Below are positions 10,145 to 35,889 of a DNA stretch of 36,946 nt, piece by piece. The position numbers were made by a program, and so were the translations under genes. Below the pieces are notes generated by a model. It was given only the letters and a program-made list of their open reading frames with translations. It did no database searches and was not told where the DNA came from. The stretch is from a virus. Its lineage: Duplodnaviria > Heunggongvirae > Uroviricota > Caudoviricetes. Numbering within the stretch: position 1 is the first letter of the stretch; the number at the start of each line of letters is the position of its first letter. The stretch lies in IMG/VR virus record IMGVR_UViG_2718218132_000001, one strand, 5' to 3'.

Positions 10145-10717
10145 TCAGGGAGATTCATTGCTCTTATTTACCGGAAATTTTCTATAAATTGTGGAAACAC
10201 CTACATCAAAAATCAGTGCAATACGCTGTCTTGATTCTCCGGCCTCGAGTAAACGTCCAATCTGTGCCCACTGTTCGGTGGTCAACTTAGGACGGCGTCC
10301 ACCTACTCTGCCTTTGGCGCGAGCTGCAGCAAGCCCCGCCCTGGTACGTTCAACTATTAGTTCGCGCTCCATTTCAGCCAGGGCCCCCATGACATGAAAA
10401 AAGAAACAGCCCATTGGGGTACTGGTATCAATACTGTCAGTCAGGCTTCGGAAATTCACGCCACGCTGGCGCAGCTCTTCTATCAGCGTAACGAGATGCC
10501 GCATACTGCGCCCCAACCTGTCCAGCTTCCAGACAACCAGCGTGTCTCCTGCCGATAGTGTCCTGAGTAGTTTTTTCAGTCCCGGTCTGTCGGACTTAGT
10601 GCCACTGATTTTGTCCTCAAATATCCGCTCACATCCCGCGCAGTTCAGTGCATTACGTTGCAAATCGGTGTTCTGGTCATTTGTTGACACGCGTACATAG
10701 CCAATAAGCATGAGCAT
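10145..10717 (-). CDS. Serine DNA invertase, Hin/Gin/Pin/Cin family
   Basis: 190-aa product beginning MLMLIGYVRVSTNDQ with catalytic Ser in the YVRVST motif and a C-terminal HTH; start placed at an internal Met of the longer ORF. Confidence 0.9.
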   Translation of the reverse strand: MLMLIGYVRVSTNDQNTDLQRNALNCAGCERIFEDKISGTKSDRPGLKKLLRTLSAGDTLVVWKLDRLGRSMRHLVTLIEELRQRGVNFRSLTDSIDTSTPMGCFFFHVMGALAEMERELIVERTRAGLAAARAKGRVGGRRPKLTTEQWAQIGRLLEAGESRQRIALIFDVGVSTIYRKFPVNKSNESP

Positions 10718-10766
10718 CCCCCTGAATAAAAACCGGAGATGATGCCAGTTAGCCGTTATCTCTGCA

Positions 10767-10792
10767 TTTTCATAAACGTTCAATTGGGAGAA
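10767..10792 (+). repeat. Putative 26-bp recombination site (right) of the invertible tail-fibre segment
   Basis: TTTTCATAAACGTTCAATTGGGAGAA; inverted relative to 12301..12326, 19/26 identical, same central TT dinucleotide, encodes ...QLGE in frame. Confidence 0.5.
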
Positions 10793-11215
10793 GCGGCAAA
10801 ACGGGATGTCGGAACCGGTAATAATCAACTCCCGGACATGTCCGCATTTGGTATGTCGCGAAACGGACAAACTGCCTGGGATATTCTCCCAAATGGTATG
10901 ATTCGACAGGCTGGCACTGTGACACTGACACCAGTTGGTAACTTCAACGCGCAGGTGCTTGGTGGGGTGACGTACTACACCCATTACTACAGGGTTAATT
11001 TCCCCAGACAATTCCCAAATGCACAAATAGCAACGCTGGCAACATTAGCGAGTTACAGCTTTTCGACCCAGGCATCAATGGCCGGAAAATCACTGGCAAC
11101 GCATCGCGATACTGATTCTGGCACTGACGTATCAAGAACGCGATTCACTGTGGCGTATACGACACCCAATCTCGGCGAAACACCGACACTGCATTTTGAA
11201 GCAATAGGATACTAA
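10793..11215 (+). CDS. Alternative tail-fibre C-terminal segment (Sv'-like), expressed only after inversion fuses it to the constant part of H
   Basis: Frame is open from the recombination site to ...TLHFEAIGY stop; shares a QLGxAAxRDVG junction motif with H; opposite strand to H and adjacent to the invertase. Confidence 0.65.
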   Translation, partial: AAKRDVGTGNNQLPDMSAFGMSRNGQTAWDILPNGMIRQAGTVTLTPVGNFNAQVLGGVTYYTHYYRVNFPRQFPNAQIATLATLASYSFSTQASMAGKSLATHRDTDSGTDVSRTRFTVAYTTPNLGETPTLHFEAIGY

Positions 11216-21804: not shown

Positions 21805-23571
21805 ATGAACACCACACTGACACCCGCAGATCTCGATCCCCGTCGGCAGGCCATGCTGCTGTACTTTCAGGGATACCGCGTAGCCCGCATTGCTGAAATG
21901 CTGGGCGAGAAAGTTGCAACCGTTCACAGCTGGAAAAAACGCGACAAGTGGGGTGACTATGGGCCGCTGGATCAGATGCAGCTCACCACCGCCGCACGTT
22001 ACTGCCAGCTCATTATGAAGGAGCACAAAGAAGGGAAAGATTTCAAAGAAATTGATCTGCTGGCGCGCCAGTCGGAGCGCCACGCGCGGATCGGCAAGTT
22101 TAACAATGGCGGCAACGAAGCCGATTTAAACCCTAACGTCGCCAACCGCAACAAAGGCCTGCGCCGTCAGCCTGAAAAGAATGTTTTCACCGATGAACAG
22201 ATTGAGAAGCTGGAAGAAATCTTCCATTCCTCCATGTTCAACTACCAGCGTCACTGGTGGGAAGCCGGAAAAACTAACCGCATCCGCAACCTGCTGAAGT
22301 CACGCCAGATCGGCGCGACCTTCTATTTTGCCCGTGAAGCCCTGATTGACGCCCTGCTAACCGGACGTAACCAGATTTTCCTTTCTGCCAGTAAGGCACA
22401 GGCGCACGTCTTTAAGCAGTACATCATCGACTTCGCCAAAGAAGTGGAAGTGGAGCTGAAAGGCGATCCGATGGTGCTTCCCAACGGGGCCACACTGTAT
22501 TTCCTCGGCACCAATGCCCGCACTGCCCAGAGTTACCACGGCAACCTGTATCTGGATGAATATTTCTGGATACCGAAATTCCAGGAGCTGCGCAAAGTGG
22601 CTTCCGGTATGGCTATTCACAAAAAATGGCGACAAACCTATTTTTCCACGCCATCCAGCCTGACCCACAGTGCTTATCCGTTCTGGTCCGGTGCGCTGTT
22701 CAACCGTGGACGCAACAAAGCCGACAAGGTGGACATCGACCTGTCCCACAGCAATCTGGCCCCCGGCCTGCTGTGCGCAGACGGGCAATACCGCCAGATA
22801 GTCACCGTAGAAGATGCGGTGCGCGGCGGCTGTAACCTGTTCGACCTTGACCAGTTGCGCATGGAATACAGCCCGGACGAATACCAGAACCTGCTGATGT
22901 GTGAGTTCGTGGACGATCTCGCGTCCGTGTTCCCGCTCAGCGAGCTGCAGGCGTGCATGGTGGACAGTTGGGAAGTCTGGACCGACTTTCATGCACTGGC
23001 CCTGCGCCCGTTTGGCTGGCGCGAAGTGTGGATCGGTTATGACCCGGCAAAAGGTACGCAGAACGGCGACAGCGCCGGATGCGTGGTGGTGGCACCGCCA
23101 GCCGTGCCGGGCGGTAAGTTCCGCATTCTTGAGCGTCACCAGTGGCGCGGAATGGACTTCCGCGCCCAGGCTGACGCCATCAAAAAACTGACCGAACAGT
23201 ATAACGTGACCTATATCGGCATCGACTCGACCGGCGTCGGTCACGGGGTTTACGAGAACGTGAAAGCGTTTTTTCCTGCCGTCCGGGAGTTTGTCTACAA
23301 CCCCAACGTTAAAAACGCCCTGGTACTCAAGGCCTACGACATTATCAGTCACCGCCGCCTGGAATTTGACGCCGGACACACCGACATTGCGCAGTCATTC
23401 ATGGCAATCCGTCGCGCCACCACCGCCAGCGGCAACCGCCCGACCTATGAAGCCAGCCGCAGCGAAGAAGCCAGCCATGCCGATCTGGCCTGGGCAACAA
23501 TGCACGCACTGTTTAACGAACCGCTGCAGGGCGAGTCCGCCAATGCCAGCAATATTGTGGAGATTTTTTGA
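21805..23571 (+). CDS. P: Terminase ATPase/large subunit (gpP)
   Basis: 588-aa ORF; P2 gpP family; divergent from O and overlapping the Q start. Confidence 0.9.
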   Translation: MNTTLTPADLDPRRQAMLLYFQGYRVARIAEMLGEKVATVHSWKKRDKWGDYGPLDQMQLTTAARYCQLIMKEHKEGKDFKEIDLLARQSERHARIGKFNNGGNEADLNPNVANRNKGLRRQPEKNVFTDEQIEKLEEIFHSSMFNYQRHWWEAGKTNRIRNLLKSRQIGATFYFAREALIDALLTGRNQIFLSASKAQAHVFKQYIIDFAKEVEVELKGDPMVLPNGATLYFLGTNARTAQSYHGNLYLDEYFWIPKFQELRKVASGMAIHKKWRQTYFSTPSSLTHSAYPFWSGALFNRGRNKADKVDIDLSHSNLAPGLLCADGQYRQIVTVEDAVRGGCNLFDLDQLRMEYSPDEYQNLLMCEFVDDLASVFPLSELQACMVDSWEVWTDFHALALRPFGWREVWIGYDPAKGTQNGDSAGCVVVAPPAVPGGKFRILERHQWRGMDFRAQADAIKKLTEQYNVTYIGIDSTGVGHGVYENVKAFFPAVREFVYNPNVKNALVLKAYDIISHRRLEFDAGHTDIAQSFMAIRRATTASGNRPTYEASRSEEASHADLAWATMHALFNEPLQGESANASNIVEIF

Positions 23572-24602
23572 TGGGAAAGAGTAAGAAGAACCGCGCTGCG
23601 TCGACGAACCAGAACCAGCATAAAAGCCAGACTTCAGCCGAAGCATTCAGCTTCGGTGATCCCGTTCCTGTTCTGGACCGCCGCGAACTGCTGGACTATG
23701 TGGAATGCGTACAGATGGATCGCTGGTATGAGCCGCCCGTCAGCTTTGACGGACTGGCACGAACCTTCCGCGCCGCCGTGCATCACAGCTCACCGATTGC
23801 GGTGAAATGCAACATTTTGACCAGCACCTACATCCCTCACCCGCTGCTCAGCCAGCAGGCTTTTTCGCGTTTTGTGCAGGACTATCTGGTTTTTGGTAAC
23901 GCCTACCTGGAGAAACGCACGAACCGCTTCGGTGAAGTTATCGCCCTTGAGCCTGCGCTGGCAAAATACACCCGACGCGGGTTAGACCTAGATACCTACT
24001 GGTTTGTGCAATACGGTATGACAACCCAGCCATATCAGTTCACGAAAGGCAGCATTTTTCATCTGATGGAACCGGACATTAACCAGGAGATCTACGGCTT
24101 GCCCGGCTATCTTTCTGCCATTCCGTCCGCCCTGCTCAATGAGTCCGCCACGCTGTTCCGTCGAAAGTATTACATTAACGGCAGTCATGCTGGCTTCATC
24201 ATGTATATGACCGACGCCGCGCAGAACCAGGAAGATGTGAACAACCTCCGCAACGCGATGAAAAGCGCCAAAGGTCCAGGCAACTTCCGCAACCTGTTTA
24301 TGTACTCGCCTAACGGCAAAAAGGACGGGCTTCAGATCATCCCGCTGTCAGAAGTCGCAGCGAAGGATGAATTTCTGAACATCAAGAACGTGAGCCGGGA
24401 CGACATGATGGCGGCACACCGTGTGCCACCGCAAATGATGGGGATTATGCCGAGCAATGTAGGTGGGTTTGGAGATGTGGAGAAGGCCAGTCTGGTATTT
24501 GTACGTAATGAATTAATTTATCTACAAGGGCGATTAAAAGAAGTTAATTCTTGGGTGGGCGAAAAAATTATTTCATTCACCCAATACACTTTAGATAATT
24601 AA
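23568..24602 (+). CDS. Q: Portal protein (gpQ)
   Basis: 344-aa ORF, same length as P2 gpQ; downstream of P. Confidence 0.9.
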   Translation: MMGKSKKNRAASTNQNQHKSQTSAEAFSFGDPVPVLDRRELLDYVECVQMDRWYEPPVSFDGLARTFRAAVHHSSPIAVKCNILTSTYIPHPLLSQQAFSRFVQDYLVFGNAYLEKRTNRFGEVIALEPALAKYTRRGLDLDTYWFVQYGMTTQPYQFTKGSIFHLMEPDINQEIYGLPGYLSAIPSALLNESATLFRRKYYINGSHAGFIMYMTDAAQNQEDVNNLRNAMKSAKGPGNFRNLFMYSPNGKKDGLQIIPLSEVAAKDEFLNIKNVSRDDMMAAHRVPPQMMGIMPSNVGGFGDVEKASLVFVRNELIYLQGRLKEVNSWVGEKIISFTQYTLDN

Positions 24603-24653: not shown

Positions 24654-24968
24654 TTAGTTTCTATAATTAGAAATATAGTCATCCATTTTAGCCTGCTCTA
24701 TGATTCCACTATTTTTAATATACAAAACATTTGCCCAATCAAAATACTCACAAAGAATAACAATCATAGTCAAAAGCTTTTCATCAGTCATATTTATTAA
24801 CAGCTCATATTGTTCAGCTTTTTTTTCACTTTCAACTTTATCATCTATCAACTTCACCAAAAGATAAAATCTTCTTACCAAAGAGAAAAAATGATCATCA
24901 ACATCTAAACTTTCCAACCATGCAATGATTCTTTTCTTTTCTATTCCAGCTCTAACCAAGATGCTCAA
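24654..24968 (-). CDS. Hypothetical protein; probable C-terminal part of the upstream membrane protein, split by a frameshift at a G8 tract
   Basis: Starts only with TTG; its frame is open upstream to 25040 and a 1-nt change in the G8 tract (25032..25039) joins it to ORF 24986..25399. Confidence 0.45.
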   Translation of the reverse strand: MSILVRAGIEKKRIIAWLESLDVDDHFFSLVRRFYLLVKLIDDKVESEKKAEQYELLINMTDEKLLTMIVILCEYFDWANVLYIKNSGIIEQAKMDDYISNYRN

Positions 24969-24985
24969 GTTATCATCAATGAAAG

Positions 24986-25399
24986 TTATAGCATTATTAG
25001 ATCTATACTCAATAAGTGTAGGTTCTTTGGTCCCCCCCCTTTACTTTCATCATCATTATCTGCTCCATTACCGATTACAATACGCAATTTATTATAATTA
25101 GAATCTTGAGATTCAATTAGACAGAAAAACCTCACTTCAAATTTTTTGTAATCTTCAAGTAACTCTTGTCTTTTTATCTCTTGTTTCAATGTTGAGTTAG
25201 ACTGCACTTGTAAAGTTACAGAGCGAATCAGCAGGCAAATCGAGATAAAACTTAGTATAGGATTCAGGACCCCACCCATGAAGTCCCCAAATTGCCCCCA
25301 AACATCAGCATCTTGAGTACTTAAGTACCAGGGGCCAAACTTAATACAATAAACCCCCAAAACTATTATTATAAGAGCTAAACAAATTATTTTTAACAT
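24986..25399 (-). CDS. Hypothetical membrane protein (two N-terminal TM helices); N-terminal part of a probably frameshifted roughly 250-aa gene
   Basis: ATG lies 1 nt after the stop of the upstream gene; hydrophobic N-terminus; low GC; ends shortly after the G8 tract. Confidence 0.55.
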   Translation of the reverse strand: MLKIICLALIIIVLGVYCIKFGPWYLSTQDADVWGQFGDFMGGVLNPILSFISICLLIRSVTLQVQSNSTLKQEIKRQELLEDYKKFEVRFFCLIESQDSNYNKLRIVIGNGADNDDESKGGGPKNLHLLSIDLIML

Positions 25400-25400
25400 C

Positions 25401-26219
25401 TTACTGCACCGTATGCACTAAATATTTCACAGTTTCCCCACTGTTAATTATTACCCGACTTACAGTCAGTTCAAGATAAATATAACCAGCAGTGGAAGGC
25501 GGATTATTTACATGTAAGTTAGCCGAAATCATTCTTTTTTGAGCTGGAATGATGACACGTAAGGGGCTATAAAACCCAAATGCCACCGTATCATTTTCGC
25601 CCTCAAGAACAAGCCTACCATTGCCAGTGCGAGCATTAAATCTTGTAATATAAGCCCTGATTACTTCAGTCTTTTTTAAAACACGTGATGTGAATAAATT
25701 TGTTGCAGTAGATGTATCTAATTCAATTACTTTTTTCTTATCATGGGCACGCTGTTTAAAATTTAACTCGATATTATAGTTTTTTTTGAGGTTAATTTCA
25801 TGCATTCTTTTTAGAGGAGCTCGAATACGACCTATCAACTCATCCTCAATATCCGATAAACCTTTAACTACTTCTTCCGCTTCATTGGAAAGTTCGCGAC
25901 TCTCTAAATATAATGATTGCGAAATAAAGAAACTCATCACTTCATTAAATACTGGTTTAGATATTTTGCGAAGTTCTGATACCAGTTCAGCATCATTAAT
26001 AACCAAGTCAAAATTTTGACCATAAGAACCGGTGAAATTCCTCTTGAGTACAGCCCTTGCAGGATTTACATGAGAGCGGCGCTTTATTATTACTTTCCTA
26101 AGTATAGCCTCCGCCAACAAGCAAGTAACCTCTGCAGTTCCTGCAAGCGTGTCGAGACCGTATTCCATATCTACTTCATCATCGCCGCTTTTGATAATAA
26201 CATCGTAATTAACTCGCAT
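25401..26219 (-). CDS. Hypothetical protein (272 aa), first gene of an AT-rich cargo operon between portal Q and cos
   Basis: AAGGAAAG RBS 5 nt before the ATG; candidate -35 TTGACT upstream; no family recognised by eye. Confidence 0.6.
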   Translation of the reverse strand: MRVNYDVIIKSGDDEVDMEYGLDTLAGTAEVTCLLAEAILRKVIIKRRSHVNPARAVLKRNFTGSYGQNFDLVINDAELVSELRKISKPVFNEVMSFFISQSLYLESRELSNEAEEVVKGLSDIEDELIGRIRAPLKRMHEINLKKNYNIELNFKQRAHDKKKVIELDTSTATNLFTSRVLKKTEVIRAYITRFNARTGNGRLVLEGENDTVAFGFYSPLRVIIPAQKRMISANLHVNNPPSTAGYIYLELTVSRVIINSGETVKYLVHTVQ

Positions 26220-26342: not shown

Positions 26343-26458
26343 TGCCCGCTTTATGTAGTAGTTTTCATGCAGGTGCATGATCTACGCGAAAGCCCGCCAA
26401 TTCTGGCGGCCCTAGCAAAAACGATCCTCAAACGATCATGCGATCTCATGCAGCATAG

Positions 26459-27301
26459 TCATGCACGATCATTTGACTCAGCATCTGCTGCACGCTTGCT
26501 GCGCGAAGATGCACTTTTACTATCAATCTTTCGACAGTTCTTTCTATCCCTGGCTTCATTTTCTTTAAATTTGTTATATGTCTCAGTATCAAAAAACGAA
26601 ATTGTTTCAACCTCATCTTTTGGTATGAGCACACGGAAATCTTCGATATTAAGCCGAGACATTCCACTTATCACACCACTATCAAGATAATGTTGGTGAT
26701 AGTTAGTCGTGATACTAATCGTTAGATCATCTTTATCCCGATATCCGCTTAACATCGGGAGAAGTTCAAGGTGCTCTGAAAGCCCGTTTTCTAACGCCGG
26801 ACAAGTAACAAGACCAACATAGATTTTGCGAGACGACAGAGTTGCTATGATCGGAAACTGTCTTGCGGACGCTTCCATGAGTAATGATTCGAAAGCGTTA
26901 TTACCCACAGCTTTAGCTAAGGCATCCCAGCGACGATCTCCACGTGATGTGCGTAACTTATTTCCAAAACCTGAAATCGCAGCGAGGACAATTGAAATCA
27001 TAACCCATGCTATCTGTTTGATTTCATTTATTCTTTGAAGTTTGTCTTTCGATGAAGACAACATGCCATTAAAACTGTCAGGTGTTAGATTCAAGGCATT
27101 AGCCAGCCAACGAAACCCTCCGCTGACGTTCAAAATAAAGGTGAAAAAACCGCCAAGGAGAAAAAAAACGATACCCCAGGCAGCCACAAAAAAATAAGCG
27201 TCCCAGCCGTTGGAACGCTTATATCGGTATCTTGTTGAAAGTGATAGGTTTACATAAATAAAACCACTAACCAAAATCACTGCTAAAAGTAATGTTGCCA
27301 T
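26459..27301 (-). CDS. Hypothetical polytopic membrane protein (280 aa) with a soluble C-terminal domain
   Basis: Three to four N-terminal hydrophobic helices; translationally coupled (TAATG) to the upstream 71-aa ORF; AT-rich. Confidence 0.6.
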   Translation of the reverse strand: MATLLLAVILVSGFIYVNLSLSTRYRYKRSNGWDAYFFVAAWGIVFFLLGGFFTFILNVSGGFRWLANALNLTPDSFNGMLSSSKDKLQRINEIKQIAWVMISIVLAAISGFGNKLRTSRGDRRWDALAKAVGNNAFESLLMEASARQFPIIATLSSRKIYVGLVTCPALENGLSEHLELLPMLSGYRDKDDLTISITTNYHQHYLDSGVISGMSRLNIEDFRVLIPKDEVETISFFDTETYNKFKENEARDRKNCRKIDSKSASSRSKRAADAESNDRA

Positions 27302-27516
27302 TATCTGGTTCTATTAGTTTTCTCTTTTACAGTGCTCGTTTTGATGCCTTCAAGCTTATCCATCTGTGCCTTGATGGCATCCATTGCTCTTTTGTTAGAC
27401 AAGTCTACGGACACAAAACCATCTTTACTAAGATTGAGTTTGTCCTGGTTCTCTTTAAGAACCCTTGCCAGACGTTCAACTGGGTTACCCAGGCTAAATG
27501 CGGCGATGCTTGACAT
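27301..27516 (-). CDS. Hypothetical small protein (71 aa), first gene of cargo operon 2
   Basis: ORF whose stop overlaps the start of the membrane-protein gene; basic C-terminus; no family recognised. Confidence 0.5.
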   Translation of the reverse strand: MSSIAAFSLGNPVERLARVLKENQDKLNLSKDGFVSVDLSNKRAMDAIKAQMDKLEGIKTSTVKEKTNRTR

Positions 27517-34154: not shown

Positions 34155-35831
34155 ATGAATTCATTTTCCATCGTTATATTCTTATTAGCATTTCTCGCCC
34201 CCATTCTAGCTGTAATATTATTTAAGCAAAGCAAAAAACATAAAGCGGCTATAGATACCTTGACAGCTAACAACATAGCCCTTTCCAACCAACTGAAAGA
34301 AAATCAAGAAGAATTAGCACAGACTGTACGAGATCTATCAGAGCTTGAAGGACGAGCTGCACCATTATGGCAATACGTAGAATTGCACAGCGCAGTGATG
34401 GAAGCAGAGAATAAGATAAAAAATGCAGACTCAATAGCCAGGCAAAAAATAGAAGAAGCCCAAATAAAGGCTGCTAAGACAGTAAACGAAGCAAATTATC
34501 AAGCTCAGATAAAAATAAGCAACGCTAATAGCGAAGCTATAGCAATTACTAAAGACGCTCGCGATGCACGCCTGAAAGCTAAAGAACGTCTTGATAATGC
34601 CAATAGTAAAGCAAATGAGCTGATCTCAAATGCTAATGACAATGCAGTGAAGATTATTTCCGATGCAGAAGAAAGAGCAAAAGAGATTGCTGGTTCAGCA
34701 TATGAAGCTAAAGAATTTGCAGAAAAATATGAAGCAGTTGCCAAATCAATGAAAAATAAAATTGAAGGTTATGGTGATGAATGGATCATCCCTAACCGTA
34801 GCGTTCTCGATGAATTGGCAGAAAATTATGAGTTTACAGATGCAGGCAAGGAATTACAAAAAGCCAGGGAGTTAACAAAATCATTAATAAAAACTAATAA
34901 AGCTGCTTCGTGTGATTATGTTGAACAAAACAGGCGTAATACTGCTATCAACTTTGTTTTAGATGCCTTCAATGGAAGAGTTGACAGTATTTTATCAAAA
35001 GTCAAACACAACAATTTTGGAAAACTTTCCCAAGAGATAAAAGATGCGTTTCAACTTGTAAATTACAATGGTTCTGCCTTTAGGTCCGCAAAAATAAGTG
35101 ACATCTATCTTCAAGCTCGACTCAACGAGCTAAAATGGGGTGTTGCAGTTAATGAAATTATGCTCGAAGAAAAAGAAGAGCAAAGAAGGATTAAAGAACA
35201 ACTTCGTGAAGAGGAAAGAGCTCGTAGGGAGTATGAAAAAGCGATAAAAGAAGCTGAAAAAGAAGAGAAAGCTATTCAGCAAGCTATAAATAAAGCAACA
35301 AAAGAGCTTATGCTTGCAAATGAAGAACAACGCTTAGCTTTAGAGCAAAAAATAGCTGAACTACAGTTAAAATATGAAGAAGCTGAAGCTAAAAACCAAC
35401 GAGCTATTTCTATGGCTCAACAAACTAGATCAGGCCACGTTTATATAATTAGTAATATTGGCTCATTTGGCGAAGATGTATATAAAATTGGAATGACACG
35501 CCGCCTTGAACCACTTGATCGTGTTCGTGAACTCGGTGATGCTAGTGTTCCTTTTTCGTTCGATGTTCATGCGATGATTTATAGTGATGATGCACCATCA
35601 TTAGAAAATCATCTGCATAAAGTCTTCAACGAAAAACAGGTCAATAAAATTAACTCACGAAAAGAGTTTTTCAACGTAAATATTAAAGAAATTAAGTCTG
35701 TTATTGAAGATATGAACATCAACGCACAATGGACAATGTTTGCGGAAGCGAAAGAATATAGAGAGTCACTGGCGATTGAGCAAGAGCGCAAAGCAGCAAC
35801 TTCCGCCAACGATGAACTGCATGTTGCTTAG
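34155..35831 (+). CDS. Membrane-anchored coiled-coil protein with C-terminal T5orf172/GIY-YIG-like domain (DUF4041-type); lysogeny-operon cargo
   Basis: N-terminal TM helix, about 350 aa of Ala/Glu/Lys/Asn-rich coiled-coil, C-terminal HVYIISN...YKIGMTRRLEPLDRVREL...PFSFDVHAM motif pattern; AT-rich. Confidence 0.7.
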   Translation: MNSFSIVIFLLAFLAPILAVILFKQSKKHKAAIDTLTANNIALSNQLKENQEELAQTVRDLSELEGRAAPLWQYVELHSAVMEAENKIKNADSIARQKIEEAQIKAAKTVNEANYQAQIKISNANSEAIAITKDARDARLKAKERLDNANSKANELISNANDNAVKIISDAEERAKEIAGSAYEAKEFAEKYEAVAKSMKNKIEGYGDEWIIPNRSVLDELAENYEFTDAGKELQKARELTKSLIKTNKAASCDYVEQNRRNTAINFVLDAFNGRVDSILSKVKHNNFGKLSQEIKDAFQLVNYNGSAFRSAKISDIYLQARLNELKWGVAVNEIMLEEKEEQRRIKEQLREEERARREYEKAIKEAEKEEKAIQQAINKATKELMLANEEQRLALEQKIAELQLKYEEAEAKNQRAISMAQQTRSGHVYIISNIGSFGEDVYKIGMTRRLEPLDRVRELGDASVPFSFDVHAMIYSDDAPSLENHLHKVFNEKQVNKINSRKEFFNVNIKEIKSVIEDMNINAQWTMFAEAKEYRESLAIEQERKAATSANDELHVA

Positions 35832-35889
35832 CAATGTATGTTTCATAGTAATCACACATTGATTACTGGTTGTATATACAGTTAAATTT

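Follow-up and report, generated by a model that had tools for sequence, protein, structure and literature searches.

Phase variation by a coding poly-G run is described for the BREX-like Pgl defence system of Streptomyces coelicolor, in which the G-tract of pglX switches at a frequency between 1e-2 and 1e-4 (Sumby and Smith 2003; PMC4365076). In P2-like prophages, the interval between the gpA and gpQ genes, the old/tin locus, is a defence hotspot (Rousset et al. 2022, PMC9122126). Among the membrane-anchored abortive-infection proteins, AbiC has two transmembrane (TM) helices and AbiP has one, and both the anchor and the extra-membrane domain of AbiP are required (PMC13064643).

The locus analysed here is related to each of these systems. 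It lies in a window of 36,946 nucleotides, which is the whole stretch of DNA under study, and comprises a G8 homopolymer within the gene of a membrane protein. As in pglX, the poly-G run is coding, gain or loss of one G inactivates the gene and variants arise repeatedly. The switching frequencies and phenotypes of pglX were measured, whereas the variants described here are known from strain sequences. Moreover, the tract of the present gene appears to be young and is located in a variable loop, and its OFF alleles constitute only about 1% of occurrences. The gene resembles other cargo of the P2 gpA–gpQ hotspot in its location, in its AT-rich composition and in belonging to a module that is exchanged beside varying neighbour cassettes, but its cassette is absent from the recognised PADLOC v2 systems. 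Like lactococcal AbiC and AbiP and the Pfam putAbiC family (PF16872), the protein combines an N-terminal membrane anchor, with two TM helices as in AbiC, and a helical extra-membrane domain. It differs from them in falling below the Pfam and PADLOC thresholds itself and in being always paired with a 272-residue OB-fold/DUF7946-like partner, whereas AbiC and AbiP are single-gene systems.

The membrane-protein gene and its reading frames

A run of eight C residues at positions 25032–25039 of the + strand forms the G8 tract on the − strand, as originally predicted. It is the sole G/C run of seven or more nucleotides in the 36.9-kb window. At least one G8/C8 run was obtained in 42 of 100 shuffles of the whole window, and a single such run is thus not unusual; the first-order expectation for such a G/C run within the ~4-kb AT-rich cargo region (39% GC) is ~0.03. 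The tract is located in a block of 35–40% GC that is flanked by a P2-type portal gene (23568–24602, + strand) and by replication genes.

The tract separates two ORFs on the − strand. The 137-aa ORF (24986–25399) consists of native residues 1–123 and 14 out-of-frame residues, and its native part covers the two TM helices, the long helix and the first β-strand of the predicted model. The 104-aa ORF (24654–24968) corresponds to residues 145–248 of the intact protein. Reading backwards from its TTG start codon, which represents Leu145 of the full-length protein, the frame stays open exactly as far as the tract and closes at a stop immediately upstream. Because this TTG falls inside a predicted helix (residues 134–150), the 104-aa ORF is not an independent gene. 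Upon in silico editing of the tract, G9 and G6 generate ORFs of 248 and 247 aa, respectively, and G7 and G10 generate products of only 129–130 aa. The original prediction that a one-nucleotide change in tract length would fuse the two ORFs into one of roughly 250 aa therefore holds for an added G, which yields 248 aa, but not for a removed G. Its further claims that the downstream ORF has only a TTG start in a frame open to the tract, and that the product is a membrane protein, were borne out by the ORFs and the in silico edit and by hydropathy and the AlphaFold model, respectively. The disrupted gene as a whole (24654–25399, − strand), once repaired to G9 in silico, has a 248-aa product in which two TM helices are combined with a C-terminal domain resembling putAbiC. 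In this protein, the tract encodes Gly121–Gly123. The normal allele has G9 followed by A, or G10, and produces the full 248-aa protein; relative to it, the G8 tract of the window is a −1 frameshift.

Homologues of the gene are encoded as single proteins, typically of about 240–252 aa. A search of a large protein collection found 47 homologues, which, with few exceptions, are single proteins of ~240–270 aa spanning both halves and which come from Escherichia, Leclercia, Hafnia, Pectobacterium, Pantoea, Citrobacter, Serratia, Klebsiella, Cronobacter and other genera. The exceptions are a few shorter entries of 158–207 aa (P0008, whose source label is partial, and P0013, from a multiply frameshifted metagenome contig). 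The several homopolymer frameshifts of P0013, a Logan contig, suggest error-prone reads. Both PHROG profiles, including phrog_8999, and a whole-library profile search likewise describe one protein that extends across both halves. An identical intact protein (P0050) is present on 329 contigs, and intact products overall are found on hundreds of contigs. Homologues that consistently occur as two separate proteins, which had been named as grounds for rejecting a split gene, were not found. Thus, positions 24654–25399 represent one gene carrying a −1 frameshift, not two genes, and the split gene in the window is best treated as a single gene for a 248-aa protein.

Over 13.7 kb, the window matches the genome of Escherichia coli EC590 (NZ_CP016182.2) without a difference; the tract there occupies CP016182.2:3366118–3366125. 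Four further complete E. coli genomes share the cassette at 99.5% identity or more. Three of the five genomes contain an intact 248-aa gene: 22F46 has G9+A, and 2017-03-3CC and Sx181 have G10, in which the A after the run is replaced by G at equal length. The remaining two are EC590 itself (G8) and isolate 10 (OW968288), which has G9+A but is interrupted by an IS1A insertion further down the gene. The comparison of tract length in related prophages that had been proposed thus identifies intact G9+A or G10 alleles as the nearest relatives of the window gene.

Predicted structure and family of the membrane protein

In its AlphaFold model (pLDDT 84), the repaired protein begins with two hydrophobic helices at about residues 1–27 and 39–66, which are also evident from hydropathy, and continues as a long helix up to residue 103. 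A β-hairpin follows (residues 106–110 and 129–133), the tip of which is disordered (residues 113–124, pLDDT below 50). The C-terminal helical domain (residues 134–247) is well folded and lies entirely downstream of the tract. The three glycine residues encoded by the tract are located in the disordered hairpin tip, and the tract segment is the most variable and indel-rich part of the family alignment. The gene has a GC content of 32%. GGG is used for four of the ten Gly codons outside the tract, and GGG codons are accordingly not unusual in this gene by Gly codon usage.

Direct scans of Pfam, NCBIfam and PADLOC yielded no usable family for the membrane protein or its partner. Neither the repaired protein nor any of 38 family members matched Pfam, even at E ≤ 1, and the gathering score of PF16872 was not reached. 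Neither cassette protein matches a PADLOC v2 defence-system model; the membrane protein gave weak partial matches to ZorB (E 3e-4, TM part) and PDC-M43A (E 0.009), and the partner gave none. The PHROG families that were matched are all of unknown function. A Foldseek search with the model of the membrane protein against the PDB returned no significant match. However, a family profile search reached carriers of PF16872 (putAbiC) with E values of 1e-9 to 1e-15, and these carriers weakly match the PADLOC AbiC and AbiP models. In hhalign, the family aligned with the putAbiC carriers end to end over 215 columns, including the domain, with a probability of 99.9% and an E value of 3e-35. By these profile comparisons, the 248-aa protein is a divergent member of the membrane-anchored AbiC/AbiP-like (putAbiC-type) group. 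A literature search on DUF7946 and putAbiC found no papers. The G8 frameshift would remove the whole C-terminal domain, and since none of the putAbiC-equivalent part is encoded upstream of the tract, the G8 allele is expected to be null.

Tract-length variants and the source of the G8 allele

Tract-length statistics were drawn from protein-indexed assemblies and the five complete E. coli genomes. Exact-pattern scans with the tract and its flanks of viral, metagenome and GTDB genome contigs gave no match. The 137-aa frameshift product was found on ~10 contigs of the collection and the partner gene in 952 blocks, and the −1 allele is therefore rare, at about 1% of occurrences; among the longest contigs, one of ten distinct contexts is split. 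At the DNA level, −1 alleles are observed on four cassette haplotypes. Haplotype A has G8A in EC590, CP016012 and one metagenome contig and G9A in isolate 10, L027 and CP025243. Haplotype B has G8A in L006 and G9A in 22F46. In haplotypes C and D, G9C (L008 and L011; L007 and L012, respectively) corresponds to G10C in 2017-03-3CC and Sx181, respectively. Several of these alleles occur in nearly identical DNA: CP016012 (G8) and CP025243 (G9) exhibit 0 SNPs in 5.8 kb, L007 (G9C) and Sx181 (G10C) exhibit 0 SNPs in 13.7 kb, and L008 and 2017-03-3CC differ by 1 SNP. A +1 allele, G10A, which encodes a 130-aa product, is present on a fifth haplotype. If all are real, the variants amount to at least five −1 events and one +1 event. 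In total, tract-length polymorphism (G8A/G9A/G10A and G9C/G10C) occurs on six haplotypes, although some variants may be sequencing errors.

The gene is disrupted by other means as well. A (GAAAA)x2 direct repeat inside the gene (24931–24941, − strand) has lost one unit in other strains, and this 5-bp deletion yields a truncated product of 165 aa. Isolate 10, whose prophage is otherwise identical to that of EC590 except for 2 SNPs over 36.9 kb, carries IS1A at approximately codon 172 (L003 7444–8141, equivalent to about 24874–24883 of the window), and a second, independent IS1 is inserted near codon 20 in GCA_025241965.1 (L024). The partner gene contains a T8 run at window positions 25780–25787 (A8 on the − strand) at its DKKK codons, and a truncated partner of the Klebsiella-type allele (P0098; 163 aa, seven contigs) ends exactly at that A-run. 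The proposal that the effector is hit preferentially over the partner is not advanced firmly, in view of this A-run truncation and of a sampling ascertained through truncated products.

Across strains, the tract is a real, slippage-prone indel hotspot. We read it as a mutational hotspot whose null alleles would be short-lived, since purifying selection would preserve an intact gene in most lineages. The rarity of defence-gene pseudogenes in P2 hotspots that a 2026 survey reports (PMC13586616) fits this reading. Independently of the origin of the G8 in EC590, the length variants of other strains would be sporadic, short-lived loss-of-function alleles and not the states of a maintained switch.

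To locate the source of the EC590 allele, the window and two 50-kb core regions that flank it were aligned between EC590 and isolate 10, its sister strain, for a total of 136.4 kb. The two genomes differ by 14 SNPs and four indels, and all four indels are one-base deletions in EC590, each in a G/C run. At the membrane-gene tract, G9 is shortened to G8. At window positions 26405–26410 (26408), GGG on the + strand (CCC on the − strand) is shortened to GG (CC) in a hairpin between the 280-aa gene of a neighbouring cassette and the present cassette. This hairpin is terminator-like (− strand, GCCCGCC-AGAATT-GGCGGGC and then TTT), and EC590 is one G short in it on the + strand. GGG is found at this site in isolate 10, CP016012 and L027, and the GG of EC590 is probably another assembly deletion. 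In a tRNA-Ser(GGA) gene (L035 15870–15957; record position about 3305871–3305957), C7 is shortened to C6 at L035 position 15942 (record position about 3305942), and the gene measures 87 nt instead of 88 nt. The remaining deletion changes an intergenic G5 to G4 (record position about 3316615). The tRNA site lies outside the window and serves as an internal control for assembly quality. ARAGORN called the EC590 copy of this tRNA in a shifted register; the flanks of the tRNA-Ser C-run vary among E. coli genomes. Between EC590 and isolate 10, two of the three G/C runs of at least seven nucleotides are shortened, and none of the 38 A/T runs of that length is changed. L027 has both G9 and GGG at 0 SNPs from EC590 over 5.8 kb, which makes EC590 the odd one out.

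A set of differences made up solely of deletions, all of them in G/C runs and one in a tRNA gene, is typical of uncorrected errors in a long-read consensus. EC590 was presumably sequenced with PacBio. The deletions of EC590 resemble the residual homopolymer deletions of long-read-only assemblies in that they are one-base deletions only, occur in G/C runs only and are commoner in longer runs, and also in affecting a tRNA gene, in which a genuine loss of a base would do harm. They depart from that pattern in that the coding regions near the EC590 window are clean. From this error pattern, we infer, with a probability of about 0.6, that the EC590 G8 is an uncorrected homopolymer deletion in the assembly. 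The artefact is the more probable source because the natural −1 frequency is about 1%. The EC590 bacterium would then probably carry an intact gene, and the missing G would have arisen in the assembly. Several observations argue in the opposite direction. None of 92 core genes in the flanking regions (50 kb each) is flagged as frameshifted or as a pseudogene, real slippage likewise climbs steeply with the length of a G/C run, and the −1 change is also found in at least four other backgrounds, some of them drafts that are probably based on Illumina reads. In addition, the independent IS1 insertion in the gene of the sister strain fits real selection against the gene in this lineage. The original prediction offered a sequencing or assembly error, an inactivating mutation and an on/off switch without ranking them; the error is the best supported, real inactivation comes second and the switch is the least likely. 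The EC590 frameshift should not be interpreted biologically ahead of a read check, and it matters little for the window.

A real G8 in EC590 would be a recent slipped-strand −1 mutation, arising from neutral decay or favoured by selection against a costly or toxic AbiC/P-like protein. It would find company in the −1 alleles of at least five cassette or prophage backgrounds, all of which have an intact relative that is nearly identical, in the +1 allele and in the independent disruptions of the gene by two IS1 insertions and the 5-bp repeat-unit deletion. We nevertheless consider a real mutation possible but rather unlikely, given that the three other EC590 indels, particularly that in the tRNA gene, look like assembly errors and that disrupted alleles constitute a few percent of occurrences. 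Nor do the disruptions of other strains establish a bias toward the effector, since the partner also has its A-run truncation P0098. IS1 favours AT-rich DNA for insertion, and a gene of 32% GC is an AT-rich target for it. A further reading takes the split as functional as it stands, with separate 137-aa and 104-aa products or with full-length protein made by transcriptional slippage or by −1 ribosomal frameshifting on G GGG GGA. The run does contain a formal X XXY YYZ heptamer in frame, and RNA polymerase slippage on homopolymers is known for long A/T runs. In E. coli, however, slippage is poor both on G-rich heptamers and on runs of G. With no split homologue among those found and only a TTG inside a predicted helix to start the second ORF, a functional split is extremely improbable.

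An evolved switch would make the tract a contingency locus, in which reversible G(n) slippage turns an Abi-like effector on and off within populations. The tract is positioned for this role inside an ORF whose frame it sets (G8 out of frame, G9 in frame), as a G9–G10 run in the coding region of a defence-like gene. Its length is polymorphic among near-identical strains, several pairs of which are distinguished by the tract alone; otherwise identical prophages include −1 as well as +1 variants, and G8 and G9 are interleaved across the strains of haplotype A, which implies repeated changes. The toxic defence component pglX provides a precedent (PMC4365076). However, the tract is not conserved and uninterrupted across alleles in the manner of one kept by selection. 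It is confined to one allele cluster of at least 90% identity, and alleles at 75–79% identity are devoid of the run. The loop that contains it is disordered, hypervariable and rich in indels and tolerates any sequence, and substitutions break the run in some alleles (KGGE, KGGV, KGRG and G7TG). Approximately 97–99% of occurrences are ON, unlike typical contingency loci. Length polymorphism is thus the one positive support for an evolved switch, which we regard as improbable. If such a switch did exist, the tract would stochastically turn on and off the AbiC/P-like membrane effector of a defence cassette in P2 prophages of Enterobacteriaceae and hedge phage protection against effector toxicity; for E. 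coli, this would be the first abortive-infection-type system described as phase-variable. The G9–G10 run of the E. coli allele offers a cheap test case for slippage modulating prophage-borne defence in mismatch-repair-proficient enterobacteria.

The cassette and its neighbours in the P2 hotspot

The partner gene (25401–26219, − strand; 272 aa) is located immediately upstream of the membrane gene, and its TAA stop codon ends 1 nt before the ATG of the latter. The membrane gene is translationally coupled to this partner as the second of two genes in an uncharacterised cassette, which is placed in a P2-like prophage between the annotated replication endonuclease (gpA) and portal (gpQ) genes. The C-terminal domain of the partner is OB-fold-like, and its distant homologues match Pfam DUF7946. 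The 952 blocks in which the partner is indexed come from several enterobacterial genera. A promoter and terminator scan remained at background level, and the INPHARED phage collection contained no match to the cassette. Judged by family relationships and position, the cassette is a candidate anti-phage system, and its most likely function is putatively that of an abortive-infection system composed of a sensor and a membrane effector. It would represent a widespread, unnamed candidate anti-phage module of the P2 hotspot, in which an OB-fold/DUF7946-like protein is combined with a two-TM putAbiC-like protein.

The neighbour of the cassette differs between prophages and can be a pair of 71-aa and 280-aa genes, a ComF-like gene with a hypothetical gene, a DUF8087 gene or none. 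In the window, the companion is the pair of 71-aa and 280-aa genes (26459–27516, − strand), which lies upstream of the 272+248-aa cassette and matches phrog_9843 and phrog_3630, both of unknown function; searches of Pfam and PADLOC returned no match for it. The replacement of the companion while the 272+248-aa cassette stays shows that modules are exchanged in the hotspot. Many Logan contigs (e.g. L012, L013 and L015) hold the two-gene cassette on ~1.9–2.3 kb with near-identical ends, and it is likely that the assembly graphs break where the hotspot neighbours diverge.

Two other regions of the window resemble variable loci. A gene with a DUF4041 annotation (about 34157–35833, + strand), with Pfam matches to SNIPE, T5orf172 and MUG113, is a second AT-rich cargo gene and lies beside the CI repressor gene, between repressor and integrase. 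A recombinase-family gene (approximately 10145–11215; L021 11387–12457) adjoins the genes for tail fibre and tail-fibre assembly, and a short gp53-like ORF is present on the opposite strand; this region looks like an invertible tail-fibre segment.
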